The translations under genes and the position numbers were made by a program. A stretch of DNA of 51,765 nucleotides, the filler included, from Sphacelaria rigidula (Eukaryota), in assembly GCA_964200075.2 (NCBI GenBank). It is 4 parts of 4 records of this genome, joined end to end, with 100 filler letters (N's around TTAATTAATTAA, not from the genome) between each part and the next. Parts side by side here need not be neighbours in the genome. Positions count along the whole stretch, not along the records: positions 12,968 to 25,834 come from CAXNAA020003349.1; 3 more parts are not named here. One strand, written 5' to 3'. Shown piece after piece: positions 12,868 to 48,770 of this stretch (the first letter of the stretch is position 1; the number at the start of each line of letters is the position of its first letter). The notes under the pieces were generated by a model. The model did not search any database. It was not told the DNA's origin and saw nothing but the letters and a program-made list of their open reading frames with translations.

Positions 12868-12967
12868 NNNNNNNNNNNNNNNNNNNNNNNNNNNNNNNNN
12901 NNNNNNNNNNNTTAATTAATTAANNNNNNNNNNNNNNNNNNNNNNNNNNNNNNNNNNNNNNNNNNNN
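12868..12967. other. Artificial contig linker N44-TTAATTAATTAA-N44 (also 25835-25934 and 38801-38900)
   Basis: Three identical 100-nt structures with stops in all six frames. Confidence 0.95.
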
Positions 12968-13052
12968 TGGATGAGATAAGGGGCTCCTAACAATTCCAAT
13001 CTCAGAAATTATTTCTGTACCCCTACCGTAGCATCACTCATGACAGTCACTA

Positions 13053-13500
13053 CGATTTGAAGGATGTGGAGATTCGGTGGAAATTGGGCTTGGAATCCGT
13101 ATGTTCAATTTCGGAACAGTTTGAAAGGCGCTGATTGGTCGAGACACATTTTTGTCCATAGCGCCACCGATATAGCCTTGAAAGAAAAATCCGGCTATGT
13201 CACCCTCTCCGTCTATTCATTGCGGTCAGTATGATACCATGTATGCGACTATTGGGTGCGTATTGCAGAAGGCATTGCTGATGATATATATATATATATA
13301 TTTTTTTTTTCCGTGAACCAGCCTGTACGTGGACCAGGTTAGCAGGTGAGGAATATTGAATACTATTCATTATATACTTCATTCGGATTCGCCGACAGAG
13401 AACATCTAACAATGTTCTCGTGAGATTGAGGGTGAAAAACTGTCAACTAGTGACTGAATCCTTTCAGTTCCGAAATGCCCCTCCACGAGGCCCGTTATGA
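13053..13500. repeat. Repeat of about 450 bp, inverted relative to 18590-18994
   Basis: The reverse complement of 13161-13283 aligns clearly to 18780-18901, with patchier similarity beyond. Outer ends TA|CGATTTGAAG and CTTCAGGTCG|TA. Confidence 0.65.
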
Positions 13501-14439
13501 GATGGTGGCGAGGACGTTTCGTCTGCTCGTGAGAAGACGTCTTGCCACTAGGTGGCAGGACTGTCGTTGTACGACTGTTACCGTCCCTGAATTGTATCGT
13601 AAAACCCCACTACAGGGCTACACTGTCTTGTGACCCGCACATGGTTCATGACGAGCATCAGGCCGAATATGGTGCTTGCTGGTGATCTCCCATAACGTAG
13701 CCATGTAGCGGCGAACGACTATCCTCTAACAGGCTCCCCAGATGTTAGCAGGCCGTGGTAGCTCAAGGTTCAAGCTGCGACAGGCGAAAACCAACTCCGC
13801 TCGCGCGCGAGAGTGAGCTACAACCTGGGAAGTACTCTGAAACCAGGTCGACGTGTGGCAACCCAGGTTCCAGTCCGAACATTCCACATTATTGGGGCCT
13901 CTTCGATGATTCCAACCTAAACTCTGTACAACAGCCTCCGCCTCCACAACAATCGGGTGAAGAGACCGAGTTCCTTACTACTAACTGAAGGAAAACAGAA
14001 AAAAATCATCTACTTCGTCCGGGGCCGACTAATAGAGTGCGGCACCTCTTGTTGCGTTTCTGGCGCATATTTTACCAGCTCTCTGTACCCTGTGGCTGTA
14101 CAGCAAATATCAACTCTGAACACGAATTACACTGCTGAAGCTAAGAATGATCATTTCGTCCTTCACGCACGGCGGAAGAGTTTCACCATCGCCGAGACCA
14201 TGTTGCCTGTACTTAGTTCATACAAAGAGGAGCAGGATGAAAGTATAGCAGTAGCCCGTGAAGACAACACAGAAGTACTCTCGACTGACTAGTTGGGGTA
14301 GCCTCCAACCGTCAAAAACTTTCTTCTGGACATCGAATCCCACTGCCCTAACGTCAGCTACTAGGCCTGCGCGAGGCACGCCCCAACTTCAACTGCACGG
14401 GGTAGATAAGCTACAAACGTCAGGTGCGGCAAACAAGAA

Positions 14440-15696
14440 GGTTTCGGCACCGCATGTTAAATTGTCTACTCGAAGCGACCCCCGAACTCCTGACATCGAC
14501 AGCCACAGGGACGCAGGTGACGCCACACTCTCGATCGGCTGGTCGAAGTGGTTTCCGAATGTCAGCTGCTACAAGTAGAGTTCATGCTCGGTAGAATGAA
14601 GTTGCCCCATTTCTCTTTTGTTGTAGACACCGAATCCCGCATCCTCAATGGAGACAGTTCTCCTCGTGTGCGCAGAACGCGTTTTTTCAAATAGGCGCCA
14701 ATTTGACGTCTGGCAACGCACACTTTGCCAAAGGAACACGTGGCACCCCCCTCGCCCGATGGTTCTCGGTATGCCTTCGTTGGGGTGAGGGTTAAGATGA
14801 GGGTTAGGGCCACAATTATTCTTAATCATAAATTTTCGATAACGTTCTTCACCCTATCAAGTCGTATGCTAACCTTGCTGCCACAGCCAAGCAGACCATG
14901 CCACACCCTTCATCAGCTGGTTGAATTGTTCTCCGAACGCCAGCTGCTGCAGTCACGCAGGCAATGATACACGTCAATCAGCTGATTGACGCCATATCTG
15001 GACGTCAGCTGCTGCAGCAACGCAGGTTATGCCACACCCTCAATCGGCGTAACGAAGGCATATCCGAACGCTAGCTGCTGCAGTCACGCAGGCCATGATA
15101 GACCTCGATCGGTTGGTCGAAGCCATATCCCAACGTCAGCTGCTACAGCCAAGCTGACCATGCCACACTCTTCATCAGATGGTTGAAGTGTTCTCCGAAT
15201 ACCAGCTGCTGCAGTCACGTAGGCGATGACACACCTCAATCTGCTGGTTCAAGTATTCTACGAACGCCTGTTGCTGCAGTCACGCAGGCCATATTAAACA
15301 TCGATCGACTGATTGAAGCCCTATCCCAAGGTGTGCTGCCACAGCAACGCAGGTCATGCCACATCCCCGATCGGCTGCTTGAAGGAAGATTCGAACGTCA
15401 GCTGCTGCAGCGACGTAGACCCATGCGACACTATCGATCGGCTGGTTGAATGTATCTCCAAACATCAGCTGCTGGAGGGTCACAGGCAACGCCACATACT
15501 CAATCGGCTGGTTGAATGAACCTTCAAAGTTCAGCTGCTGGAGCAACGCAGGCTAGGCCACTCCTTGAATTGGCTGGTTGAAGAATTCTCCGAACGTCAG
15601 CTGCTGCACAGACGCAGGCCATGCTAACCTCTCAATCGCCAAATCATCGCCTCGGCCAAACATTAGCTGCTGCAGCGATGCAGGCCACGGCACACC
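14440..15696 (-). pseudogene. Degenerate continuation of the FNIP array (about 13 units with stops and frameshifts), split by an insertion at about 14577-14870
   Basis: 66-bp periodicity and FNQPI..WPA.LQQL.FG translations continue past the TAG at 15697, with many TAG/TGA/TAA codons and 1-nt indels. Confidence 0.85.
14577..14870. mobile_element. About 290-bp insertion in the dead FNIP array, carrying TTAGGG-like motifs
   Basis: Interrupts the 66-bp repeat, has weakly inverted ends, and contains ggggtgagggttaagatgagggttaggg at about 14782-14809. Confidence 0.5.
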
Positions 15697-17121
15697 CTAA
15701 ATCGGTTGGTTGTAGTCTCCAAAAGTCAGCCTCTGCAGCGAGGCAGGCCATGTCACTCTCTCGATCGGCGCATCGAAGGAAAATCCGAACGTCAGCTGCT
15801 GCAGCGACACAGGCCATGCCACATCCTCGATCGGCTGGTTGAAGTAACCTCCGAACGTCAGCTGCTGCAGCGACGCAGGCCATGCCACACCCTCGATCGG
15901 CTGGTTGAACGATCTTCCGAACGTCAGCTGCTGCAGCGACACAGGCCATGCCACACCCTCGATCGGTGCATTGAAGAAATGTCCGAACGTCAGCTGCTGC
16001 AGCGACGCAGGCCATGCCACATCCTCGATCGGCTGGTTGAACAACGCTCCGAACGTCAGCTGGCGCAGCGATGCAGGCCATACCACACCCTCGATCGGCG
16101 CATCGAACAATTCTCCGAACGTCAGCTGCTGCAGCGACACAGGCCATGCCACACCCTCGATCGGCTGGTTGAACAACGCTCCGAACGTCAGCTGCTGCAG
16201 CGACGCAGGCCATGCCACAGGCTCGATCGGCGCATCGAAGGAAAATCCGAACGTCAGCTGCTGCAGCGACACAGGCCATGCCACACCCTCGATCGGCTGG
16301 TTGAAATAACCTCCGAACGTCAGCTGCTGCAGCGACTCAGGCCATGCCACATCCTCGATCGGCTGGTTGAATTCTGCACCGAACGTCAGCTGCTGCAGCG
16401 ATGTAGGCCATGCCACATCCTCGATCGGCTGGTTGAACGATCTTCCGAAGGTCAGCTGCTGCAGCGACGCAGGCCATGCCACAGCCTCGATCGGCTGGTT
16501 GAAGTACTCTCCGAACGTCAGCTGCTGCAGCGACGTAGGCCAGGATACACCCTCGATCGGCTGGTTAAAGCAATCTCCGAACGTCAGCTGCTGCAGAGAC
16601 GCAGGCCACACCACTCTCGAAATGGGTTGATTAAACTTTGCCAGTGCATCTCTGTCCCAGAAAACAATTTTCCCGAGTTGCGGGGGCCAGACCACACTGT
16701 CCAGACTACGATTGAACATGCTGTGAAAGTACACGCCTCGTACATTAGCCAAGACGTTGGTCCTGCAAGACATGAAAGCTGCGTCAGCACTCGGCATCCA
16801 CAGAACGCTACGTACTCGTAGCAATGGCACTCGAGTTGCATCGGTGCGGCCCTTGGATCCAGCTATCAGAGTCGGAAATTGTTCGGTAGCATCCGTCCAT
16901 AGCCTGCGCGGTGTAGATCTCCCACATGTCATACGCAGGGCGCATAGACTGCGACAAGCGATACAGAGCTGTAGTGAAGCCAGCTGTAACTGTTTCATCG
17001 GCATATACGGCTCACCCGAGGAGGAAGTCTGGTTGAGGGCTGTGGTGAAGGCCTCCAGACAAAGGTTGTTGCCTGACACAAGAGTATGAAACGAATACGT
17101 TACGCGTTTAGCTCCGATCAT
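15697..17121 (-). CDS. FNIP-repeat (LRR-like solenoid) protein, apparently intronless, about 474 aa
   Basis: 14 tandem 22-aa units FNQPIEGVAWPASLQQLTFGxx (15697-16635) after a unique N-terminal region. The start codon is uncertain. Confidence 0.9.
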   Translation of the reverse strand: MIGAKRVTYSFHTLVSGNNLCLEAFTTALNQTSSSGEPYMPMKQLQLASLQLCIACRSLCALRMTCGRSTPRRLWTDATEQFPTLIAGSKGRTDATRVPLLRVRSVLWMPSADAAFMSCRTNVLANVRGVYFHSMFNRSLDSVVWPPQLGKIVFWDRDALAKFNQPISRVVWPASLQQLTFGDCFNQPIEGVSWPTSLQQLTFGEYFNQPIEAVAWPASLQQLTFGRSFNQPIEDVAWPTSLQQLTFGAEFNQPIEDVAWPESLQQLTFGGYFNQPIEGVAWPVSLQQLTFGFSFDAPIEPVAWPASLQQLTFGALFNQPIEGVAWPVSLQQLTFGELFDAPIEGVVWPASLRQLTFGALFNQPIEDVAWPASLQQLTFGHFFNAPIEGVAWPVSLQQLTFGRSFNQPIEGVAWPASLQQLTFGGYFNQPIEDVAWPVSLQQLTFGFSFDAPIERVTWPASLQRLTFGDYNQPI

Positions 17122-18087
17122 CAAGCAGCGTACACGTGGAACTTATCGCACGCTAATTACACAACCTAGGCCTGTACATAGCCTGCACGCCCAGCGAAGA
17201 AATCGGAATACACTAAATTGCGAAAACGCGACAGCAAGGAAGACCCAATCGCGAGCGTTCCTGAGCTCGTTTCCGTCGCAAGTTCCTGGCGGGAAAGTGA
17301 TGATGGAGAATCATCGTCGGATGATTTCCGACTAGTCTACGGTGACAACTCGTATCACGTCATGTCACCACGAATTGTTTATAGGAGGTGAGGTAGAATC
17401 GGAGCGTTGAGTTCGCGGTTTGTGTAGCCCCTCCATATCGAACTTGCGCACTTTGTCTACGATTGTATGCGCATTGGTACGCCAGTCGACCACAAACCGC
17501 AATATAAACGAAACTACCACGCGGGGAATCATTTGCACTCGAACATACCACAATATACTAAGCTGTAGGTCTCGTACATTAGTGTCAACTATATACGCCA
17601 CAATCGTGATGCGATGAAAGTGTTCCACTCCTTGTCGAGACCATTCTCACCTGCCGCGTCCACGCCGACATCAGAGACGACGCGCCGAATAACTTTGGAC
17701 CCGCCGGCAGCTGAAACTGTGCCACGAGCACGCACCATCGTTCAGCACTTCACGCCAACAACTCTATGCGGCCGGTCACGGTGCGTTGGGCACACGTAGA
17801 AACCCTCTCGTGATGGTTATCACTCGTGCACACCTGAGATCGGACATGTGAGAAACGACATCGTGTGGGTGAATCTCGGTCACGACACCATTCACAGGAG
17901 AGCACATGACACTCAAAGTGGTACATCCTCCAACCGCCGTGGTCAGCGTAGAACGACATGATACTCGCTACGCCAACGAGCGGAGGGCGGCCTCCAGCGC
18001 ATGTTGGTATCATGCAAAACGTCACGCAGCTAGTGGCATTACCTACCCTTCAACCAGGTGTGGAAGGAGTGATCACCTGTGTGGGGG

Positions 18088-18486
18088 TCCGTCGCCCCAG
18101 TGGTTCAGTTGGTGACCTCGAAACTTCCTGGCGGTTGAGACGTGGGTTCGAATCTAAGTGAAGTCACGCGACCTGGGATTCTTTCTCACATCATGCTCGA
18201 CAGTAGAGAGACTGTGTCGTTTGTACACAAAGTTTGATCTCACAGTCGACGAGGGAAAAGGATCACGGAATCCTTCCCGCGATAACAAAAGCAAGGCGAG
18301 TACCGCAGAGGAAGGTGGACTACCGGAAGGAAATACAAAACTAAAAAGCTCCCGCGTTGACTTTCCTCCTGAGTGACCCCCGGCTGATGCGCTCACATAT
18401 GCCGAGTTGTGTAGAGCGACATTTAGATCAGACGTGATGACCACACACACACGCACACATACACAACACACATCAAACAGCACACA
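18088..18486 (+). mobile_element. tRNA-derived SINE, copy 2
   Basis: A box TGGTTCAGTTGG 18101-18112, B box GGTTCGAATCT 18145-18155, colinear with copy 1, CA-rich tail. Confidence 0.8.
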
Positions 18487-18589
18487 CCAGAGTTTCGACA
18501 GGACATCAGTATCGCCGATTAGCAACTGCGTCAGTGGCGCTAATGGTATTGATCACGGAATTTTCATCTTTTCCCGATTCGTGTTCCAG

Positions 18590-18994
18590 ATAGCGTGCTG
18601 CCTGGAGGAAAAATTACAGTCGTACAGAACTGGAGCACTCTAGTGTGCATCACGCTGTTCTCTTCTTCTCAACGCAAAGCAAACTCGCATCAGCACGATG
18701 CCACAAGGCTGAAATCGTGGTGGGGTACAAAATATTGCTTCTGACACGCCGGTTCATGCTCATCACCAAACGCTGTGCTATCAGCATATGCCTCCAGCAA
18801 TACCTGCCCAATAGTCGCATACATGACATCACACTGACCGCCATGGCCAACTGAATAGGGTGACGTAGCCGAATTTTTGTTCAAGGCCATGAGGGTGGCG
18901 GTTGACGTAGCCCAACTGAATAGGTCGATCGATCAGAGGCCTTCAGGTTGTTTCCCACCATAAAATATGCCCGATCTTCACATGCTTCAGGTCG
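18590..18994. repeat. Inverted partner of 13053-13500
   Basis: Shared cccaatagtcgcatacatg and agggtgac.tagccg blocks in opposite orientation. Confidence 0.65.
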
Positions 18995-19309
18995 TACAGT
19001 AGTAACCGGCATGAGGTCATATATCAAAAAGACAAAACAGATTTGAAAACGGTTACTACTGTTTCAGTTACTCCCAGCAACCGTGGTACCTCGTTTCTGT
19101 GGGTCCTTGGCGTCGTCGGACTTCCCTGACGATAGGCACTATAGACTCGAAAGACCTGACGGTCTCTCTCATGTGTATGTCGCGGAAGAGCTCAGACCGC
19201 TCTCAGATTTGGCAGTTCGGTAGGTATTATTGGTGCTACCCATGAATAAGGCATTGCTGAAAATACTTCAAATGAAATGATGCGTCCAGAGGGTATCCAA
19301 GGGACATTT

Positions 19310-19651
19310 CACACTCTGGACAATACAATATGCTTTCAATATATGTTAGTCGATCATATTGAAATTTTGCGATATATTGCCGGCGTAATATATATATATA
19401 TATATATATATTGGTACCCTTGGACTGCACACGTATTGCGCGCCCAATATATATTGATGTCGTGTGACTGCATACATATTGTCCCATCAATATATATATA
19501 TATTGGGGCAGCGTGGGCGACAGCATATTTCAAGACCAATATATTATTGGGGTCGCATTGGTGAGAACATATTGACCGGTCGATATATAGTGGGTCTACG
19601 TGGATGCCAATGTATTGGCCGGTCAATATATATATTGGATATTAAGAGTAT
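19310..19651. mobile_element. hAT-like family member with CAATATATATATTG-type internal repeats
   Basis: Starts CACACTCTGGACAAT, the reverse complement of the end at 37245-37259. The right end is degenerate. Confidence 0.5.
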
Positions 19652-19763
19652 GGTGTACGTTTTGAGAAAGATCCAAAGATGCGATGGACGCCGGAGCCCG
19701 TGCAGCTTGGGAAAAGCGTCGCGTGCATCAATACGGAGAGTTGTCGAATGCGTATGACATATA

Positions 19764-19873
19764 CTATTCTTATTCATTATGTTTGTCCGCATTCCGCGTC
19801 TCTGGGCGCAGGTGCAACAATCACCGGGCCTGACAGCGCACCATTCCTCCGAAGTCCGACGCACCAGCGGCCA
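19764..19873 (+). repeat. About 110-bp direct repeat; second copy at 25724-25834 runs into the gap
   Basis: cattatgtttgtccgcatt...gcgcaccattcctccgaagtccgacgcaccagc is shared. Confidence 0.85.
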
Positions 19874-20002
19874 GTATTTGAATCTTCCGTTTCTCTGTGA
19901 CGTTCAACATCTCCCGTGCATCTTTGAGGAATTTTCCCTATATCCACACCTTCCCGTTTCACTTCGCGGAATTTGCCCATTTCTCCGCGGAATTTACTCT
20001 GG

Positions 20003-20740
20003 GACCAGTGACTCCCCTAGCCACCCTAATCTCTACTCGGAATTACCGCAACCTGTTTCCGTGTAACTCTTCACTTCTCTCTCTTCCTGGGGATTTCACG
20101 CGCGGGACCTCCAACAACACCGGTGACGCGCCGAGCCGTTCGACTTTTCCCTCATGAAAATCTAACGCACCTTATTTCCCCGGCACCAGTGACTTACTCC
20201 TCACCCGTCAATCCGACGGAACCTGCACGTCTCTCAGATCCCCCCCCCTCCAGTGACACAGAATCTGTCACTTTTCCGTGTAACTCTTCACCTCTCTCTC
20301 CTCCTGGAGTCTTCACGCGCGGGAACTCCAACAACACCAGTGACGCACCGAGCCGTTTGACTTTTCCCTCATGAAAGTCTAACGCACGTTATTTTCCCGG
20401 CACCAGTGACTTACTCCTCACCCGTCAATCCCACGGAACCTGCTGGCTTCCCCGTACCAGTGACGTGGACCAATGACTTCCCTAGCCACCATAATCTGAC
20501 ATTTCCCTTCTCGGAATTACCGCAACCTATTTCCGTGGCATCTTTTCATATCTTTTCCCTCCTTTGGATTGAACGCGCGGAACCCCCGACACCAGTGACG
20601 CGCCGAGCCGTTAGACTTTTCCCTCATTAAAATCTAACGCACCTTATTTCCCCGGAACCAGTGACCTACTCTTCACCCGCCAATGCAACGGAACCTCTAT
20701 GTCTCTCCGGTGCCAGTGACGTTCACAGCCGTTTGACATA
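20003..20740. repeat. Three imperfect tandem units of about 217-255 bp rich in CCAGTGAC
   Basis: gagccgtt.gacttttccctcat.aaa.tctaacgcac recurs near 20132, 20350 and 20605. Confidence 0.8.
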
Positions 20741-20959
20741 GTGGCTTTGGCGCTGGTCAGTTTCACCAGTCACTCCGAAATCTGTGAGTGTGGCTTCTCG
20801 GCTTTTGCGTAGTCGGATTGCCGTGGTCAGTGGAAGTGCCCGACACCGGGCACGTTGACAACGATTACTTCTGCACATCTTATCAGTCGCCTACCTGCTG
20901 TACTGATGTGTATGACTGTATATGACCCATGATGAACAACCGCCGCGGTTAAACAGCTA

Positions 20960-21970
20960 AACCCTTTGACGGCGGAGCCAGTCATCTGTTGAATCGACAT
21001 CAATTTCACCTGAAAATGTATGCTTGATTGCGATGACCGATGCTTGCAGTCAAAGGGTCAACCCTTTGACCGCGAGGTTAGGTCACCTGCTGAATCGGCA
21101 TCAATTTCACTGGGAAACGTCTTATGATCCAGATGGACTACCCGCATCGCGGTCTGAGGGTTAACCCTGTGACTGTAGTCAGACAGCCGTGGTCGGCGAT
21201 GGTGCGCGACGCCACGCATGTTGACAATAATCTCTTCTGCACACCATTTCAGTCACTTACTTGCTGTACCGCTTTGTATGACTGTATATGACCCGTGAAC
21301 AACCGCCGCGGTCACGCGGTTAACCCTTTGACGGCGAGAGTAGGTCCTCTGTTGAATTGGCATCAATTTCACCTGAAAAAGTATTCTTGATTCCGATAAC
21401 CGACCCGGTCACCAGCTGAATCACGATAAATTTCCCTGGGGAAAGTATGCGTGATCCAGATGGACTACCCGCATCGCAGTCTGAGGGTCAACCCTTTGAC
21501 CGTCAGGGTAGGCCATCTGGGCCATTGACGATTCAATAAATGATCTATTATATGTGGTAGCGGTCACAGCATCAGATTATTTCCCATTATTATTAACCCT
21601 TTGGGGACCGGATTCTCAGAAGCATGCGGTTTGCACGCAGCGGCCTTTTTGTGAATCAGCAACGTTTTTACTTGAAAACGAGTGAAAATGATGCCGATTC
21701 ACAAAAAGGCCCCTGAGTGCAAACTCTACATTTTTCTGGGGATCCGGTCCCGAAAGAGTTGGCCCTTTGACGGCGAGGGTAGGTCAGCTGCTGAATTGGC
21801 ATCAATTTCACTTGAAAAAGTATGCGTTATCCAGATGGACTACCCGCATCGCGGTCTAAGGGTTAACCCTTAGACCGCGAGGGTAGTCCATATCTGGATC
21901 ATGCATACTTTTTTCAAGTGAGATTGATGGCGACTCAACAAATGACCTACCCTCGCCGTCGAAGGGTTAA
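20960..21970. mobile_element. Cluster of about 100-bp piggyBac-like MITEs joined at TTAA, plus a different TTAA-CCCTTT MITE (21596-21758)
   Basis: Units CCCTTTGAC(C/G)GCGA...TCGCGGTC(T/A)(A/G)AGGG bounded by TTAA/TCAA. Inverted pair 21763-21862 and 21867-21966 shares TTAA 21863-21866. Confidence 0.75.
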
Positions 21971-22700
21971 CACGACACATGCACCAGCACACTACTCGTA
22001 TCAACGTTTTCGTGATTCTGAGAGTAGAGCGCTGATTGAGAGCAGATTTGATCAGTCGCTTCAAACTAGCCAATTATTCATTCCGTGTGTGTGTGATGTT
22101 CTTTCCCTCCATCACTGGCGTGTGCTTACAGCTGCACGTCGATATCCTACTCAGGGATGTCATGGGCCTCAGTGCCAAGCTACTACAGAAGGCATTTTGG
22201 ACCTCGTGTACGGGCATTTCAGAACTGATACGAAGAATTCACTGGTGACCGGTTTTCACTCTCAATCGCATCCTCTAATCTCAATATCACGAAAACACTG
22301 TTTCGTATATCCACGCATCTATATCCGAGCGCACCGAGCAAGCCATGACCACTGCGCTCTTGGGGACAGTAAAAAAGTCGTACAGTGAGATGAAGCAAAA
22401 ATGGCACAGTACTACAGTACACACGCAGTTGCAAATAGTGTAGTGGTGTACTATGTTCGAACATCTAATTGCCAGAGAATGAAATTTGTTGCGTTGAATT
22501 AAATGATGTAATCCACTAGTCGTTTTCTGCGTCACGAAGGATGTTTTGTTTTTTCAAGTACCCGGGAGAGGCTGTGATTTGGTGCCGAATACATGGAGCA
22601 TACCTTTCGATATATGTACAAGGAGTTCAGCCACGTACCAAAGCTTGAACGGAATCGTTCAATCGTTTGACCGCGAGGGTAGGTCGGTCATCTGGCTGTG

Positions 22701-23101
22701 ATAACATGTTTGCCAGATTCAGAACGAATTTTGCTTTCGGAACGGGAGGTTTTTCGTTATTTATAACAACGAGGCGGTCTAATCGCCCGGAACGGCCGTC
22801 ACCCCCCTGAAAGCCCGTGATCTGAAGGGAGTTGAGCTCAATCAGATTTAAAATTGCGGTGGTGCCTTACGTGAGATACGGCTGAAATGTGCATTTGTTT
22901 CCCCCCCTAATTTGGACACATTTTCCCTTATAACTCTGTACTGACCATGTCTATTTCAAATATTCTCGCACCACAATTCCCGTCAGATAACGGGCTTTCA
23001 GCGGGGTGACGGTCGTTTCGGACAATCCGACCGCGTTGGTGTCAATCACGGAAAGCCTTCCGTTCCGGAAAAAAACCCAACTAATATCACAAACATGTTA
23101 T
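22701..23101. mobile_element. About 400-bp foldback MITE nested in another copy of the 100-bp piggyBac-like unit (22666-23175)
   Basis: Ends ATAACATGTTTG/CAAACATGTTAT, long imperfect arms, and flanks that rejoin into the 100-bp unit. Confidence 0.7.
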
Positions 23102-26100
23102 TCTATGTTTTCATTTTCCAAGTTAATTTGATGCTGATCAAACACATGACCTATCTATGCTCGTGGTCAAAGGTTTGATATTGGGAACAGGTGGAGTACT
23201 GTAGATCGTTCTACAGTAACTGTTGTTACTCGTGACGGCGTTTGGCGTGATTATTCCTCTGAAGATGGAGCGAATCCTTTGCGGAATTTGTACTTGGTGG
23301 TGTTTGCTTCCGCCTCAGATGTTTCCGACCGTTTGTTTGGATGGTGGGTGCTGTTGCGAGATGTGCATCGTCTTTGGCACCGTCTTTGGCACTGAAGAAA
23401 CTCTGGTGATACTGTGATGGTATATGACTGAGGGATTGAATTAAAACTAGTTTCCTTGTGGATATGCAGATGGTCCCCAGAAACGACCAGCGGGTCTGGA
23501 AGGATTCTAGTCGAATGTGTGTTTGTCTTACTGCCGCCGCGGGTTGAGGGTGAAAGGATTGTACCCGAATGGCTGCGTGTACCTGCCGCTACTACAGCTT
23601 TTGATTGGCTTGGGGTACAGTGCGTCACGGGGAGTCGTATTTATATGACAAGATTGTATGCGTAGCTAGGAGCTTTTGAGGGTAATCGTGTGCCTCATCG
23701 CCCAGGCGAGGCACTTGCGTTCCACCTCAGCGAAGGCCCTACTGTAGACGATTCACAAGAAGAACATCAGCTTTTCATCTATTCTGCGCAAGGTCAACCT
23801 GTGGCGAGCCGTGACAAGCTAACAACACGAGTGAGTCACGAGTAACATAATTTCCTTATATCACAGTGGTGTTTCCTTTTCAAAAGGAGCTCAGTGCTTA
23901 CTTTCAACCGCAGCAGTCTACTGTCGACGACTGCCCTTGTATGAGAAAAACATACGGTTTGAGTTACGAGCCGAAAACAGGATCAGTGAGCCACATACTC
24001 TCCCATCTTGGGTCGTGGCTTGCTTTGCTAGCAATTACGTCGCAATAATACAAGAAGAAGCAAAACTGTACTGTATTGGCATGTAACTGATGTGCGGTAG
24101 TAATGGGTCACGAAATTTCATCAGAGGTATCAACATAATTTCTTCAAAAAAGCCGTACGTAGTGCTAATACAACTTGCTAGGCGATTCAGCGCCATTTCC
24201 CCCCAGGGAACAAAAGTAGCACGAGTAGTTCGAGGCTTTGCCGATTGTCACATTTCGAGAAGTCTTTCAGTGCTTTTCCGAGAGGGTTCCAGCGCCTTTT
24301 CCCACCTTTTCGTACGTCCACTTTGACTTATAGCCGATAAGTTTAGCCTTTTTTGGTCACTTGCGAAACCGTTTTCGTGGACTGGTCGACAAATTATTCA
24401 CCCGGCCAAAAGTCGAACCGGGCGCACGAAAGTTCGAAAACGTGGGCCATAATCCTCCCAGAGAGTACAGTGGCAATTCTTCATGAGGTGGCATAATCCA
24501 CCGAACCACGGATGCCAGCGGAAATCGTCACTGAATCATGAAACAGGCTTTTTTGGAGAGATTGTTCGTTGGACACGAGCAAGCAGCTTCATACGATTCA
24601 CCCATCCCTCGCTTCCATGCCAAGCAACGACCCCGTGAAGTGAACAAGATTATATTGCCTGCACGTGTATGTCGGTCCGAGCTAGAATCAATATAATCTT
24701 CTCGACCTCCCTGTGAAACGGCGAGGCAGTCGGAAAGGCCACGGTGCCATTGACCGGTAGCTATGCACTAGAACTATCCATCAAAATAGAGCGTTTCGGG
24801 GGAAACAAATTCTGAGCGTAGTGCAGAATGGAAGCGTTAAAACTTCACTTCATATTGGAAGATGATATGACGTGGCTTGACGTGGATTTTTTCGGTCGCA
24901 GTGATCAGCCGCAGGTTCTACCTACTCATGAATACTTCGAAAACAGACGTATGGACCAATGCGCATCGGTACAGGGGAGGTACGATAGCGCACCAACTGC
25001 ATTGTTGAAATTGCTACGGTCACCACACAGTGCTGCTACTGCGAGGAGTCAAGGTATATTCCAGTGCGGTGCAGTAGAGTACAGTGCAATGCAAGCTCGA
25101 TAGTAGACTACCGCGGCACAAATGGATCAAAGTGGGGTATGTACTGTAGCAGACAGTAGCTACAGAGGAGCATATGACTGTACAAGTAGTACGGTGCACA
25201 AGTGCATTGCAGTGGTAATTACAGTACGTCCAACTGAATAACAGGGCAAGCCGCAAGGACCCGACGTCGCACCATGGTGTCACCCTAAATCACGGCAGGC
25301 TTCGCTGGATTCATCAGCAGTACAGCACTGCCTCTGTGTAATTTCTCAACGTTTTTTTATTTTTATTTTGAGGAGTTAAGCAGACCATGACTCTGAAACA
25401 GATGAATGCCCTATACTTAAATCAAGTTGCGCACGTCAATGCACATGTTACCCCGCGGGCGCGGAGCCCTGCTGGCAGGTAACTTTTGCAACTAGATGGG
25501 GTTCATTTTTTTCGCTGGCAGGTTGTCTTATTTCGCTTGCACGGGCAGTTCTACGCCCGCTGTGCGATCGCCAACCCACAGGCATCCTCTTTTTAGGATC
25601 CCATTTTTACATTGGAATATCGGATCATCTGCAAATTATAGGTTCAGCACCGAATACTCCACAGTATCCTTAGCCTTGGGAAACGCTCCATTGAGCGGGG
25701 GCGCGAAGCGCAAAAACCCTTGCACTATTCTTAGTCATTATGTTTGTCCGCATTGCGCGTCTCTCGACGTAGGTGCAACAATCACGGGGCCTGAGAGCGC
25801 ACCATTCCTCCGAAGTCCGACGCACCAGCTGCCANNNNNNNNNNNNNNNNNNNNNNNNNNNNNNNNNNNNNNNNNNNNTTAATTAATTAANNNNNNNNNN
25901 NNNNNNNNNNNNNNNNNNNNNNNNNNNNNNNNNNCCACCACCACGATGGGAGGGGGGGAGAGCGCCCCCCCCCCCCCCCCCCAGGAAAATGGCCAGTTTG
26001 AGGAGGCAAGATCTCCATGTAAACCAAGATGACAAAAGCCGAGCATACCCGGCAGCTGAGAACTCCCGTGCTTGGGATTTATTTCGCCAGTGCCGCTCAT

Positions 26101-30106: not shown

Positions 30107-31082
30107 TAATACACACGATTCCGCATCATCAGGATTTCACCTCGTAAGACCATCATTCAAATTATCACCGACGGGCTTCTCGAGGAATACTCCATCTAGG
30201 AACGGGTATGAAAGATCATGATGTCGCCGAAAACGGCACTGACTGTGGTTCGTGCTTTCATTTCATCAAAGTTCATTTATGGTAACATTTTTGAAAACAC
30301 GCTCCAACGTTTTTGCTGCCCACTCTCGATACCACCGTTGCGCCCAAGCTTGATAGATCAAATCCCCCTCCCGACAAGCCTGCTGCCCGGTGACCAATAA
30401 ATGAAAACGCCCTTCTTCGCATTATCGCAGTAATCCATGGCAGCACACAGACGGTACATACACACCGTCTAGATCTGCAAGCGAAAAAAGAAAAGCAAAT
30501 CACGATATATAAAAATTCACATTGTATATGCGTTCCAGGGTAGCCCAGAAGCAACGGACTGCCACACGAGACACTCGCTCAACACGTTCGTGTCTGACAC
30601 CTCTTTCCCCCCTACGCCCCTCTCCCCCCTAGTTCATAAAGACGACGTCACGCTCTTGAAAAAGTTCAGAGACCAAGTCTGAATCCCGCTAGACAGTCCT
30701 TTCGCACATGAAAGTACGTGTTTCACTCAAACAGGGGTTACCATAGGCGCTGGGGTGTTTGTTTCCACAAGAGCAGGCGCTGCTGCGGTGGTTTTTATCG
30801 ATCGCTGAGGACGCGATGTGACGAACGGGAGTCAAAGTTTTATATCTTTGGTGGTGCAGTACAACAGAAGATAAGATTGTTGTGACGCTCGACGATCAAC
30901 AGTACGAGCGACGCCCACTTTGAAAAACGCTTGGAAGTATCGATGGCGATCATTTGGCCTCCCGAGTTGCGCCCTTGATCTCACTAGACTAACTGACAGA
31001 ACAACCTCGTGCCCCCCCCCCCACCCCCCNNNNNNNNNNTCTCCCCCCTCTCCCCCCCCCCTTCATCCCCAACCCCAGGCCC

Positions 31083-34959: not shown

Positions 34960-37705
34960 TGCGAGCTGGGCCAGCCTAAAAACGGATCAAAGATCTAAAA
35001 GCAATATCTCATCGACACAGACGAGTTGGACCATGATCCGCATATCGCATCAATCGTCTAACCAAGGGGAAGGTGCCCATCTCCATAAAAGTTTGGACCC
35101 ATATTTTCTCTTTGATTAAACTCCATGTCTAGTAATTCCTATACCTAACGGAGATGGCGTCCATGCATTGTACCGAAGTTCTAAATCTGGATGTCGCGTC
35201 TCAGTTTTTGAGAGTTCCATGAAATTTCGTATGGTGAACTGCTAGTGAATAATAAAATAAACAGCGTATTACTCTTTTTCATTTGTATTTTTATTTTTTA
35301 GTGTCTTTAGTGGGGGTTTTGAGGAGAAATTATCATGGCTCTTAGACCTTATCTCAATATTTTAGCTCAATTTTTAGAATTGTGATTTGAAAATTAGCAT
35401 GGAGAACCACGGAGGTGTGCCGAATAAAAAAAAAAGGGGCGTTTTTTTTTTTTTCCTATAAAGATTAGGGCGTTCTTGTAAAGAAATAGTCCACACCCCG
35501 GACAATATTGGCATCTATTGCGATAGCAATAAAATCTACTGCAGTAGATGCCAACACTGTCGTCCGTAATGGCCATCGATCGGTAATTTTCTCCTTCTAT
35601 TGTCGTTGGCAATGTCTATAGATAAACCGGTTTCCCACATTTTTGTCCGGGCAGCAGTCTGTTGTAGCCCGACAACCAAAACTATTGCGGCCGACCAAAT
35701 GCAGCGATCGATAGCTCTCCAAATCTAATGTTGACGGCAATGGCTATCGATAGACCGCGTGCCAAATCTACTGATGATGATGATGGCTTTTGACAGATTG
35801 TATACCAAATCTATTGATGACGGCAATAGCTATTGATAGAGTGCGTATACCATCTATGCATGGCAATGAATAACGAAAGATATATATCAGAATCTACTGT
35901 GGTATACAGCACCTACCGATAGATATTATCTGACATCTATTGTCACAGCTACATGCAACATACTACGTATAGAACATATTATACTCCGTGAAGGTACGGT
36001 AAAGGAGACGCAGGTGGGCATGTAGTGGGTATATAATGATACTACTTGTCAAAATATGGCATCACGTTTCTACAGTCTTGTAACGCTCGTATTTTGTAGG
36101 AATCCGTAATACGTGTTTTTTGTCGTTGGTATGGTGTTGGTATTTGTGGTTGTCCCTCTGATGGACATGAGCGCTTACAGCACTTTTGCGTGCGTGGGTG
36201 AGATGTGCTTATACCCTGGACAATAGACTATCCGAAGTAGAACATTGGCGCTGCGATAGCCCCGAAAAATTGACTGCCAATATTCTTTGTCAGTCATGAA
36301 CGACTGGCATCAATGTCTATCTAAAGCTATTGTAGGCGACATTAGATTCGGGACAAGGGACGGAATGTATCATTGCCGTGACAATGGAGGGGCCAAGTTG
36401 TCTATCGATACACTTTATTTGTTGCAATAGGCTCCGAATTGCGGCCATCAATGTCTATTGCTTACCACAAGAGGATCTGCCGCGCGGCCACCAATACATT
36501 TTGGTGGTCACAATGGGATATCAATTGCGTCCACCAATGTCTATTGAGTGTCACGGTAGAACCTGAATCGCAACTACCAATGTCTACCGCTCGTTACAAT
36601 GTAATCTGAATCGCGGCCACCGATATCTATTGCTGACGACAAGAGTAGCTGAACGGCGTCGATCACTATCGCTATGTATGCACACATTTCGTATCGTTAG
36701 CGTCACTGGCCATCGATAGGTGCTTCCGGGAACAACTGATTGTTGACAGCAATGCCCATATCGATACCAAAAAATGCTTTGTTGGCCGCAGAGGCTACCG
36801 ATAGACGGCTCACCAATTTAATGATGACGGTACGAGTAATAGGTATTGACAGATGGCTCACCTAACCTACTGATGACGGCAATGACTATCGATGGATGGC
36901 TCACCAAACCTATTGATAACGGCAATGACTATCGATGGATGGCTCACCAACCCTATTGATAACGGCAATGACTGTCGATGGATGGCTCACCAACCCTATT
37001 GATAACGGCAATGACTATCGATACATACATCCCAGAATCTATTGCGGTACACGATGTCCATCGATGGCGAGTAATCGTATCTACTGTAATTGCCCTCGGC
37101 TATCGATCGACTATTGCAAAATCTAATGTTGTCCTTTGCAACACGTATCAACAGATGTCTTTCACCATCTATCGTGTTCGATTATATATATCGATAATTT
37201 TTGCCCCATGTCTATTGCTGAAGCAATGGACTATTATTGTTTCCATTGTCCAGAGTGTGAAATGGCCTTCACCATACTAGAACGCCCTAAACCAGTGAAA
37301 AAAATGAAGGAAAAAAACTGGCCGACTGAGTTTTGTTGATTATGCCTTAGAAAGCGCCCACGCAAAATTTCAATACACGAACACCAAACGTGGGCCGGTA
37401 ATTGGCCTGCGGAATACTGTTCCGAATTTATACCGACCCGGTTTCTAAAGGCCCATGCTCCGGCCAATATACAGAGTTGGAGCGTAAAATTTGGTATGGA
37501 CAAGAAAAAATTACGTCGGTACCATTTTTTTTTTGTTCCATGAGTTAGGGGCAATAATCAGTTTTCAGGTATCAGTAAAATGCCCTCAACTCTGGAAAAC
37601 AAGAAAAAACTTTTGGTACCGAGGTCTTTGTTTTCATGCCCTATGTATTGTTCATACGTACCAAATTTTACGCTCCAACTCTAAATATTGGCCGGAGCAT
37701 GGGCC
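34960..37705. mobile_element. Inverted relative of the 11249-12631 element, split by the 35492-37259 insertion
   Basis: 34963-35100 aligns to the reverse complement of 12425-12570, 35300-35400 to that of 11951-12050, and the hairpin 37449-37705 resembles 11420-11672. Confidence 0.65.
35492..37259. mobile_element. 1.77-kb non-coding hAT-like element with an internal 43-bp tandem array (36800-37022)
   Basis: Ends CACACCCCGGACAAT/ATTGTCCAGAGTGTG, flanks AAATAGTC/AAATGGCC (6/8), 43-bp units at 36848, 36891, 36934 and 36977. Confidence 0.7.
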
Positions 37706-38644: not shown

Positions 38645-38733
38645 ATTACTATTACTATTACTATTACTATTACTATTACTATTACTATTACTATTACTAT
38701 TACTATTACTATTACTATTACTATTACTATTAC

Positions 38734-38800
<67 letters not shown>
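38645..38800. repeat. (ATTACT)n/(ATT)n microsatellite at a contig end
   Basis: Read directly. Confidence 0.95.
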
Positions 38801-39639
38801 NNNNNNNNNNNNNNNNNNNNNNNNNNNNNNNNNNNNNNNNNNNNTTAATTAATTAANNNNNNNNNNNNNNNNNNNNNNNNNNNNNNNNNNNNNNNNNNNN
38901 AGAAAAAAGTTGACCGCTGGTCCAAGGGGTATCCACGCAACGATTACCCCACCCCACGTGTCTGGGCGGCATGTACCTGGGTTGCAACGCTGAAAACAAA
39001 GCTCAGGGATTGATTCGTACGAGTCGAATCAGTCATACTAAAACCACGTAATTTCCAGACGAATCATTATTTGTCCGACCCTTGGAGTGTTGTGAGTTGA
39101 CTAGAGCTTCGGGACCGAGGCGGAATGGGGAGGAGGGAAGGACAGGGTTAGAATCACGCAATTTTTTCTGTGCGATACAATTCGACAGTACAGCGCAGTC
39201 GGTTGTGCTGCTTGCTGCATGTTTTTAGAACCTTGTCGCCACTTCACCGATACCCTGCGCCTGAAACACTAGGCTCGAACTCCAAAACCTTGCTTGTAGT
39301 TAGACCTGCAGCATTCGAAGAAACGAGAGGGGAGGGGGAGAGGGGGGTTACTTCTCTCGAGCCTGCCCCATGTTTTTTTGAGCGGACGATGGAAGAGGAG
39401 ATATGTCTGAGAAGTGTATCAGTGGAATATTTGTTCCATATTTCCGTTCTTGTTGAAAGAGTAGCTTTGATATCGCTTCTGTGCCTTCTCTAGTGCTTGT
39501 GCTTAGAATATTGGCTTATCAGAGATGGATTGCTGTGTGTTGTTTTGACGTTTTTGTCTCATGGCGGGATCGTGCACATGAAGCACACTTTTTTTTATAG
39601 GAGCTGAGTACTGGCGCAGCCAGCCCGTATGCTGGGTCC

Positions 39640-43657: not shown

Positions 43658-43731
<74 letters not shown>
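43658..43731. repeat. (GT)n microsatellite
   Basis: Read directly. Confidence 0.95.
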
Positions 43732-46072: not shown

Positions 46073-46089
46073 TGCTTGCTTGCTTTCTC

Positions 46090-46156
<67 letters not shown>

Positions 46157-46166
46157 TACTTGCTTA
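46073..46166. repeat. (GCTT)n/(ACTT)n microsatellite
   Basis: Read directly. Confidence 0.95.
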
Positions 46167-46919: not shown

Positions 46920-47090
46920 ATGTGTTGTTTTGTTGTGCTTTTTCCCTTCTCTTTTTTTTCGTTTTTTTTTTGTGCTTGTTTTTTCGCTTTATCTTTATAT
47001 TCCCATTCGGAATTCTTCGCATTTTCCTTTGTATACGTTTTTTCCCCTGTTTTTTCTTTTTTTTTTTGTCGAGTTTTTTCCGTTTTGGTT

Positions 47091-47121
<31 letters not shown>

Positions 47122-47135
47122 CTTTCTTTTTTTTT

Positions 47136-47182
<47 letters not shown>

Positions 47183-47265
47183 CCGTTTTGGTTGCCTTTT
47201 TTTTTTTTTTCTCTTCGTATTTTCCTCCTCGTTTTTTGTTTTTCCATCCTGTTTTTCGTTTTTTG
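46920..47265. repeat. T-rich low-complexity intronic tract
   Basis: Read directly. Confidence 0.9.
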
Positions 47266-48217
47266 TCTAATCTCCCAGCCTGGAAGCGATCTGTAGGTGG
47301 CAGGCATATTCAATTCTCAATGTTAAGAGTTGCACTTACACTTTTAGTTCGGAGAAATTGCAACCATTAGGGCGACTGCGGAGCTTTGATATATATATAT
47401 ATATACATACATTTTTTTCATGAGTTTCGGGCAAAAGCAATTCCCCTTTTTCACTAAAACTTTCCTTGCTCATGAGAAAAAAAAAAGGACTTCAGCGTCC
47501 CAAAATGTTTTCTTCTTCTTTTGTCCTAGCGATCCTCCATCCCAGATTTGAAAGGGCAACTCTCGAGGTTGAAGCAAGATTCCAGATGTAATGCATTTCG
47601 TGCCACTGCTTGTAGTGTATTGAGTTCAGTATCGGATAACTTGCGCCATAGCTCTGGATAAATAGCGACTGAGGTGAGTGTGAGGGTGTTGATTGTTTCC
47701 CCGTGCCCAAGGGCATGTTCACCCCAAAAATCATCATCATCCGCAGTACATATCGTTCGGGGTTTCGTGCATACTTGAGTATGGGGATATCTCCGCATGT
47801 TATGGTATTACCTGACAAGGCGTTTAATCAACAGGGGAAAATTTGTTTGTTTGGGGGAGATGGTCATGTTCCCCTTGATTGGACGATGAAGATAACATGT
47901 GCAGATCACGCCCTAATTCTCCGGTGTCGATGAGATGGCTGTGGGAGCTTGAAACCGTTTTTAGGCTGACCCGTGTGAGTGTTTCGTATTTTATTCTTTC
48001 TTTCGGCTGTTTGCGTAAACGTTGTATAATTTCTTTCTTCCAGGTTTTGTCCATGTATATAATAGTGCTGGACACGTGTTTCTCAAGAGCATAATGGTTG
48101 TCGAAGTGGTGTATGTGTGGGAGAGAGAGGGGGCTGCCTTGTTTTTTCCGCCCTGCTATTTTTTTTTGTCCACCCGTCTCACTCCCCCCCCTCTCTTCGG
48201 CCCCGCGATCTGAGCAG

Positions 48218-48331
48218 GAGCCCAATGCGCTTGATTCCCTCAAGATGGAGGTGGGAATAGAGGATTGCTTGCACATTGAATTCGAGTACGACAAGTCGGC
48301 TTACCACCTTCAGGATGTGGTCATTGGGAAG
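48218..48331 (+). CDS. VPS26: Vps26 internal exon ([38 protein letters not shown])
   Basis: Signature [26 protein letters not shown] sites. Confidence 0.97.
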
Positions 48332-48337
48332 GTGCAG

Positions 48338-48506
48338 TTATTGTTATTATCGTTGTTATCGTTAGCTATTGTTATTGTTTTTGTTTTTGTTGATGTTATC
48401 GTTATCATTGTTTTTATTATTGTTGATGTTATCGTTATTATCATTACTATTGCTATTGTTATTGTTATTGTTATTATTGTTGGAATCGTCATCATGAGGA
48501 GTAGCG

Positions 48507-48551
<45 letters not shown>

Positions 48552-48770
48552 TCCAATATTAGTCGTATTATTATTATTTCTAGTTTTAGTATTTCGTATT
48601 GTTAGTATTATAAGTATTATTTCACCATTAACATTATTGTTATTGTTAGTACAAGTATTTTAGTATCATCGTAATTACTAGTAGTATTACTTTTGTTATC
48701 ATTACAATATGTTGTTTCAGTGTTATTTTTTATTGATATTATTTTTGCTACTGCTGTTACTATTACTATC
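48338..48770. repeat. (TTA/TTG/GTA)n degenerate trinucleotide tract in a Vps26 intron
   Basis: Read directly. Confidence 0.85.

Follow-up and report, generated by a model that had tools for sequence, protein, structure and literature searches.

A spliced FNIP-repeat gene of the brown alga Sphacelaria rigidula with a homogenised, slot-diverse array that is probably cut short by a stop codon

This report deals with a gene with FNIP repeats in a stretch of 51,765 nucleotides from the brown alga Sphacelaria rigidula (GenBank assembly GCA_964200075.2). The window, by which this whole stretch is meant, consists of four parts of four records joined end to end with filler letters between them, and all positions count along it. 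The gene lies on the minus strand of the part taken from record CAXNAA020003349.1 (positions 12,968 to 25,834) and is the only FNIP locus in the 51.8-kb window. A first coding exon is followed by an intron and by a second exon, which encodes a head and an array of repeat units. Each unit carries a variable pair of codons, here called the slot. The reading frame ends at a stop codon in the 14th unit and a decayed array lies behind it. From 5' to 3' along the minus strand the features are:

17651 to 17738, minus strand: first coding exon, 29 codons plus one base (MVRARG...), with the ATG at 17736-17738; from contigs of the sequencing runs X5 and X7 and from translation.
17073 to 17650, minus strand: intron of 578 bases, GT..AG; from contig joints in X5 and X7.
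16603 to 17072, minus strand: N-terminal head, a family-specific two-helix region (16798-17070) and then irregular first solenoid turns; from the alignments A1 and A2 and AlphaFold2 (AF2).
15745 to 16602, minus strand: homogenised block of thirteen FGxxFN units of 66 bp; each 67-77 bits in nhmmer, with Pfam FNIP.
15682 to 15744, minus strand: unit 14, diverged (34 bits) and one codon shorter (63 bp), with the stop codon TAG at 15697-15699 where the other units read GAG; nhmmer, translation.
14893 to 15681, minus strand: twelve decayed units (15-26) past the stop, with stops, frameshifts and lengths of 63-66; nhmmer 23-62 bits, translation, Tandem Repeats Finder (TRF) periods 65, 66 and 196.
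14520 to 14580, minus strand: lone decayed unit, 312 bases past the array; nhmmer, translation.

The locus is a member of the FNIP or FGxxFN leucine-rich-repeat (LRR) family. Pfam FNIP (PF05725) is matched in 13 stretches with an E-value of 7.5e-93 and 304.9 bits against a cutoff of 21, and all 13 full units fit the consensus LxxLxFGxxFNQPIExVxWPxx of the Crov539 (WP) sub-class. Among PDB sequences, 6NYR (1e-124) and 7ZAL (4e-67) are matched. The best protein matches come from Scytosiphon, Ectocarpus, Hapterophycus, Pylaiella and Ascophyllum (45-54% identity), in addition to matches in Symbiodiniaceae, and the brown-alga relatives share both the head and the WP-type units with this gene. The family is well represented in brown algae. 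A hidden Markov model search by Huyton et al. (2022) retrieved 104 brown-alga sequences, mostly of the WP type (PMC9525666), and according to Ye et al. there are 121 FNIP proteins in Saccharina japonica (PMC4421812). A 2026 preprint places FNIP among the largest brown-alga orthogroups (10.64898/2026.04.27.720984). An FNIP pseudogene in Ectocarpus is described by Delaroque and Boland (PMC2373305).

The open reading frame (ORF) at 15697-17124 on the minus strand contains the motif LTFG 14 times with a strict spacing of 22 residues. Units 1-13 (15745-16602) have the full 66 bp, the consensus ASLQQLTFGxxFNQPIExVxWP and no indel among them, and they are followed by the shortened unit 14. The slot comprises codons 10-11 of each unit, between FG and FN, and the 14 slot pairs read DC, EY, RS, AE, GY, FS, AL, EL, AL, HF, RS, GY, FS and DY, exactly as in the original prediction, a reading made earlier from the DNA alone. 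Its list of secondary variable sites is borne out by the counts over units 1-13: the residue after E is G in six units, D in four and A, P or R in one each; the residue after WP is A in six, V in four, T in two and E in one; and the NQ/DA site reads NQ in nine, DA in three and NA in one. The claim of 14 near-identical 66-bp units holds for 13, whereas unit 14 is diverged and has 63 bp, and the decayed array continues beyond it. In the same way, identical codons recur in the RS, FS and AL slots as predicted, but a synonymous change of one base (TAT/TAC) separates the two GY slots.

TRF detects the array independently with a period of 66 and 26.3 copies over 14877-16608. The homogenised block stops abruptly, since the nhmmer scores fall from 67-77 bits in units 1-13 to 34 bits in unit 14 and 23-62 bits thereafter. 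Unit 14 has lost the second F of FGxxFN and terminates in the stop. When unit 14, the twelve tail units and the lone unit are counted together, in-register stops are found in 10 of 14 and a length other than 66 in 9 of 14. The decayed units 15-26 are either dead coding sequence or 3' untranslated region. At 14893-15420 the stop-bearing variant GCGTGACTGCAG replaces GCGTCGCTGCAG in several dead units, and TRF finds a super-period of 196 bases there. This shared variant and the super-period indicate that the dead tail was copied or converted in three-unit blocks and has its own copying history. As a source of the active slots, by donation or by descent, the dead tail was tried too and was rejected (four near-matches, P = 0.47 by column shuffling).

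The exon structure was obtained from read contigs, which were compared with the unique 5' part of the gene. One contig in X5 and one in X7 join position 17071 directly to 17650, skipping 578 bases (CT..AC, cut +1). The contigs of these runs show 0 differences to 16560-17071 and then resume at 17650-17838, and the bins 17112-17594 and 17871-18077 are empty in both. In contrast, the DNA runs X3 and X4 have no contig with this joint, read through the intron and cover 30 of 30 bins. The gene is spliced and, if X5 and X7 are RNA, it is transcribed; X5, X7, X8 and X9 are taken as RNA by guess only, no run being recorded as RNA, and X5 and X7 stem from one study. The gene had been described as intronless, which does not hold: the whole repeat array lies within one exon, but the intron separates this exon from the start codon. 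For expression, which had been proposed as a check, the answer is qualified in the same way as for transcription, given that the splicing contigs come from these two runs.

The spliced coding sequence has 1464 nt and encodes 487 amino acids plus the stop, with a coherent start codon and frame. An in-frame TGA lies two codons upstream of the ATG at 17736-17738. The transcribed first exon reaches about position 17838, the X5 and X7 contigs covering 17650-17838 and connecting to 17071. One X5 contig extends 70 letters past 17838, and an AG is present at 17834-17835, so that an additional 5' exon upstream of 17838 is likely. No hydrophobic leader was found; hydropathy over 15 residues peaks at 0.79 within residues 1-50. 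In the bin 16560-16628, which falls on a repeat unit, hundreds of other contigs of the same runs match, most with 90-95% likeness and many with other slot letters, which indicates that the unit backbone is common to many other loci of the organism.

The exon-2 product was modelled by AF2 with a 65-sequence alignment (predicted local distance difference test, pLDDT, 90.9; predicted template modelling score, pTM, 0.86). Helices at residues 3-17 and 25-41 are followed by a few irregular turns and then by one strand per 22 residues at 'QLT', with the slot 3-4 residues after the strand. The top Foldseek matches of the model are 6nyr_A (9.4e-21, TMq 0.66) and 7zal (1.5e-18), followed by ordinary LRR proteins, and the modelled fold is the curved solenoid of these two structures. 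Pfam, the PDB matches and AF2/Foldseek thus agree on the FNIP solenoid named in the original prediction. That the pair lies on the rim of the concave face is a placement by analogy, the exposure being taken from the crystal structures of 6NYR and 7ZAL.

The head carries the motifs ..CL.A...LQLASL..C.ACR...TP..L...RVPRLRARxVxW, with L28, C36, C39, R40, P54 and P82 invariant in alignment A2 (18 sequences). A phmmer search with the head alone against 1.84 billion proteins yielded 172 representative clusters at E<=1e-3. Among the new matches of at least 220 aa, 41 of 53 contain at least two FGxxFN motifs, and the remaining 12 have mostly frameshifted-looking repeat sequence or fewer pattern matches. 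The head has no Pfam family, its profile finds no PDB sequence at E<=10, and no F-box is found in it at E<=1 in Pfam over 65 members. Folded alone, the head gives a poor model (pLDDT 69) without any Foldseek match, on which VIA returns just generic helix-hairpin matches (Z<=5.1). In the Atlas neighbours of the head, which score at most 0.90, an F-box occurs in 16-37% of members; these neighbours and the F-box/FNIP proteins of giant viruses suggest that the head may be an F-box. Pfam finds no signalling domain in this gene. Over the 65 members it finds FNIP in all and, besides FNIP or LRR, no family consistently. The listed Pfam annotations of 79 longer relatives, which stem mostly from dinoflagellates and dictyostelids and show various fusions, contain no NB-ARC or TIR domain.

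At the DNA level the slot stands out sharply from the rest of the unit. Of the 22 codons the slot pair varies most, with 2.72 and 2.35 bits where the third in rank has 1.89, and unit-to-unit identity falls from 0.90 in the remainder of the unit to 0.38 within the slot. The 13 units have ten distinct slot hexamers, whereas codon pairs clear of the slot occur in 1-7 forms. Non-synonymous (dN) and synonymous (dS) rates were estimated by Nei-Gojobori counting between units of one gene, with 15 codons as the framework. In the slot the proportion of non-synonymous differences (pN) is 0.62 and dN is saturated at 1.31, as opposed to a framework dS of 0.081 and dN of 0.007; dN is 0.415 at the secondary sites, of which there are five (positions 1, 13, 14, 18 and 20). 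The slot thus exceeds the framework's synonymous rate, in keeping with the slot-versus-neutral comparison suggested in the original prediction. A neutral history cannot account for slots at saturation when the framework dS is 0.08; the slots were either driven apart or are old and shielded. The framework itself shows five synonymous variants and one non-synonymous variant, where the numbers of sites (11 versus 34) predict about 1 to 3 (P = 0.004). Codons are fixed by position, with CCG in 13 of 13 units at one proline and CCT in 13 of 13 at the other, which points to common descent or conversion and not to codon preference as the source of the uniformity.

Units have been copied within the array, as had been proposed. 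RS, GY, FS and AL occur twice each, which gives four identical slot pairs among 91, whereas the 858 units of the family predict 0.62 (P = 0.0055). Units that share a slot are not alike throughout: position 18 holds G as well as D among the RS units, and likewise among those with GY and those with AL, and the copying tracts or mutations must therefore be shorter than one unit. Since whole slots have been copied, selection that keeps the slots diverse is a simpler account than shielding, and we infer selection on the slot. Ten of the 28 slot residues are Y, F or L, compared with a share of 0.148 in the family (P = 0.005). After removal of copies this becomes 7 of 20 (P = 0.02), and for all hydrophobic residues P is 0.066. 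A hydrophobic slot stripe is therefore suggestive only.

The same two positions are variable in the family as a whole. Over 858 units from 120 listed relatives, the most variable positions are 10 (4.05 bits) and 11 (3.90), followed by 20, 17, 5, 1, 7 and 18; positions 4, 5, 7 and 17 are invariant in this gene. Its array homogenisation of 0.86 (median 0.52) is the highest among 105 proteins with at least five units, i.e., 104 relatives and this gene. The closest relative overall is P0252 (1870 aa, 55% identity at 99% coverage), which has 23 units with a framework identity of 0.74 and recurring slots, YD being used five times. Its gene model also contains PKD and tyrosinase families and is possibly merged.

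In metagenomes of JGI no close orthologue was found, the best of 19 loci having 41-50% identity. Eleven of these loci have at least six units and, as L004 and L005 are identical in their figures, they give ten distinct arrays, in eight of which the proportion of synonymous differences (pS) of the framework is saturated (0.53-0.83). The other two repeat the DNA pattern of the window in unrelated arrays: L007 has a framework pS of 0.04 and a slot pN of 0.57, and L008 has 0.25 and 0.61. Both arrays (L007:1902-2402, GC 0.23; L008:2108-2860, GC 0.30) are AT-rich and consist of 63-base units of the IP type, each behind an N-terminal head that is F-box-like by eye. Together with P0252 they suggest that the pattern is a recurrent property of young FNIP arrays and no peculiarity of this locus.

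From these results we consider it probable, at roughly 60%, that the locus is a transcribed and spliced member of the brown-alga FNIP branch with a slot-diverse, homogenised array that was cut short by a stop. In the 487-residue product a helical head would be joined to a curved solenoid of about 14 turns. As it carries no enzymatic or signalling domain, it is most likely a cytosolic binding scaffold; both binding as function and the cytosolic location are read from sequence features, and the rim pair most likely contributes specificity. The central 13 units would be kept nearly identical by unequal crossing-over or gene conversion, i.e., by concerted evolution, with the framework codons under purifying selection. 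The rim pair, on the other hand, would be kept distinct in successive turns, most likely because a particular binding edge is selected for. The stop codon of the 14th unit would have separated the gene from what was left of an older array and from the C-terminal cap, and this remainder would be decaying. The synonymous bias of the framework, the 13 units without indels and the spliced transcript stand for a working gene.

Several points weigh against this reading. The relatives end in a conserved C-terminal cap, which is absent from this ORF and from the rest of the window (0 of 75 tblastn high-scoring segment pairs in the cap part), and the case for a working gene is weakened by this loss and by the dead tail. 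A product without the cap may be unstable or inactive, although the missing cap concerns the completeness of this copy and not its descent. The slot's own dS (1.27) is as saturated as its dN, so that 'faster than neutral' depends on the framework as yardstick, and the rates compare paralogous units within one gene and not orthologues. Old slot diversity kept by short conversion tracts would look the same. At x2, x3 and x5 on the concave face this gene has Q, Q and T throughout, while the family varies there, which is unlike classical LRR receptors. Finally, the transcripts establish neither protein nor function, and the stop codon and the number of units come from one assembly.

The cap and the tail bear most directly on the alternative that survives best, although it too is unlikely, namely that of a dying gene, which was inactivated by the stop in unit 14, whose transcript is residual and whose homogenised block is too young for decay to show. 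It would explain the missing family cap and the twelve dead units straight after the stop, with the stops and aberrant lengths counted above. FNIP pseudogenes of Ectocarpus have been reported (PMC2373305), and the lack of any stop in 26 slot codons is expected by chance in about 0.29 of cases. However, the framework variants are mainly synonymous, the 13 units are free of indels and a framework dS of 0.08 speaks against a very young block. Moreover, a neutral young block cannot give saturated slots beside near-identical flanks, and splicing of the gene is seen in contigs of two runs whose RNA nature is a guess.

A second alternative concerns present selection on the slot. Conversion tracts could homogenise 60 bases of each unit and halt at the six-base heterology, so that the slot diversity would be old and currently unselected, which we regard as quite doubtful. 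The equal dS and dN of the slot fits this, as does the variation of the slot throughout the family, by which diverse slots pre-exist. The G/D differences between units that share RS, GY or AL likewise indicate tracts or mutations below the unit size. But the four identical slot pairs show that tracts can cross the slot, and without selection the slots should then drift towards uniformity. In addition, the active hexamers are no closer to those of the dead tail than by chance (P = 0.47), and no old slot identities were traced.

At a similarly low level of confidence, the brown-alga genes with head and FNIP repeats could together supply, in the germline, a set of proteins for recognition inside the cell. 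A dedicated or strongly selected process would then rewrite just six bases per unit, those of the slot, whereas the remaining 60 would stay identical through recombination, and the outcome would be a code of two residues per turn on the solenoid rim, directed against viruses or other intracellular parasites. The rewriting could proceed by short-tract templated exchange among the hundred-odd paralogues. If this were true, the pattern of L007 and L008 would represent a general, lineage-independent mode of evolution of the fold.

Improbable in our view is an outright receptor for immune or antiviral defence in which donor units diversify the slots, either by germline shuffling between paralogues or by somatic assembly as in variable lymphocyte receptors (VLRs). 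The size and fast evolution of the family in brown algae (121 members in Saccharina, PMC4421812; 104 in Ectocarpus, PMC9525666) speak for it, as do the many same-run contigs that share the unit backbone with other slot letters and, by analogy, the position of the slot stripe on a binding rim. On the other side, a signalling domain was not found, Pfam giving just FNIP consistently over the 65 members and the listed annotations of the 79 longer relatives giving neither NB-ARC nor TIR. The window holds this single FNIP locus, its dead tail bears no sign of a donor role, and in the unique part of the gene the contigs of different samples show 0 differences. The pathogen sensing envisaged in the original prediction thus finds nothing that links this gene to it.

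An origin as part of an integrated giant-virus element, and not of the alga's own gene set, is highly improbable, for although published trees place brown-alga FNIP repeats nearest those of Cafeteria roenbergensis virus (CroV; PMC4421812), the 2026 preprint calls the domain putatively virus-derived (10.64898/2026.04.27.720984) and the head has LRR clusters of giant viruses as its Atlas neighbours (scores <=0.90), the gene has a spliceosomal intron, 0 of 39 other ORFs of at least 130 aa in the window match a viral family (just a Vps26 exon is recognised) and the ORF density is as low as on an algal chromosome.

The locus resembles several known systems without coinciding with any of them. Like the VLRs of lamprey and hagfish, it combines a constant LRR scaffold with diversity at ligand-facing positions and with copied units. 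In VLRs the diversity is found on the concave strands and comes from cassettes beside the gene that are assembled somatically. Here the window contains no bank of cassettes, the variation is confined to the rim and is germline as far as seen, and the product is probably not secreted. With the repeat-variable diresidues of transcription activator-like effectors (TALEs), the gene shares near-identical tandem units that each have two variable residues and are maintained by recombination in the DNA. The TALE fold is helical, with 34 residues and one unit per DNA base; the fold here is different, and nothing suggests a periodic ligand. The Ectocarpus genes of the LRR-ROCO and of the NB-ARC-TPR type, which encode candidate receptors (Zambounis et al., PMC3341825; PMC11378527), are likewise brown-alga repeat genes with diversifying selection and shuffled units. 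In those genes, however, each repeat (PMC3341825) forms its own exon and is joined to GTPase or NB-ARC modules, while here all units lie in one exon without a signalling module, which indicates a different mechanism.

Among FNIP proteins, the F-box proteins of mimivirus and megavirus also have an N-terminal helical head and then FGxxFN units, and L007 and L008 resemble this class; in the brown-alga head, however, an F-box could not be shown. A close likeness exists to Crov539 (7ZAL) and Crov588 (6NYR) of CroV, which have 22-residue units that are near-identical within the protein and most variable at xx (PMC9525666). In difference to these, the gene here is cellular and intron-bearing, with a family-specific helical head and uniform concave positions. 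Crov539 dimerises by a swapped C-terminal cap (PMC9525666), and the gene here is capless through its early stop. From the rest of the brown-alga FNIP family, with which it shares the head and the WP units, it differs as the most homogenised of the 105, without a cap and with a dead array behind it.

Huyton et al. (2022) found the FG-FN residue pair to be the most variable in proteins of CroV, mavirus and Dictyostelium and to lie on the rim of the concave face, and noted that the family recalls VLRs without equalling them (PMC9525666). The protein-level slot pattern and the comparison with VLRs are therefore already published, and this is not a new kind of system. No literature was found that joins 'FNIP repeat' with 'concerted evolution', searches with selection terms found no paper with FNIP, and PMC5753266 mentions neither positive selection nor gene conversion nor homogenisation. 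The contrast at the DNA level may thus be unreported. Brown algae have one of the largest FNIP families, and the locus offers a clean example, at the DNA level, of how such an array evolves. It also represents a member between function and decay, spliced and transcribed, yet shortened and with a dead array behind it. As a test case it could serve for the specificity of the rim pair, for the function of a solenoid without cap and for the role of the family in interactions between algae and viruses.

The surroundings are eukaryotic in build, with sparse ORFs and common microsatellites. The Vps26 exon mentioned above (ORF 48095-48562, plus strand; PF03643, E-value 1.9e-17) is the only other recognisable coding piece among the 39 ORFs. 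At 18078-18215 and 18354-18422 the contig depth rises to 10,586 in X3 and 25,596 in X4, compared with about 15-30 in the flanks, which looks like a high-copy dispersed repeat just upstream of the 5' exon. Paired N runs of 44 bases, 12 bases apart, occur at 12868-12967, 25835-25934 and 38801-38900, i.e., every 12,966-12,967 bases, and look like a masking or scaffolding artefact and not like biology; a further N run of 10 bases lies at 31030-31039. A 43-base tandem repeat occupies 35719-37067, with 95% matches over 36852-37022 and a super-period of 86 bases. The microsatellites include (ATTACT)x26 at 38645-38798, (GT)x37 at 43658-43731 and (TGCT)x23 at 46073-46165, and a T-rich block of low complexity is found at 47050-47263.

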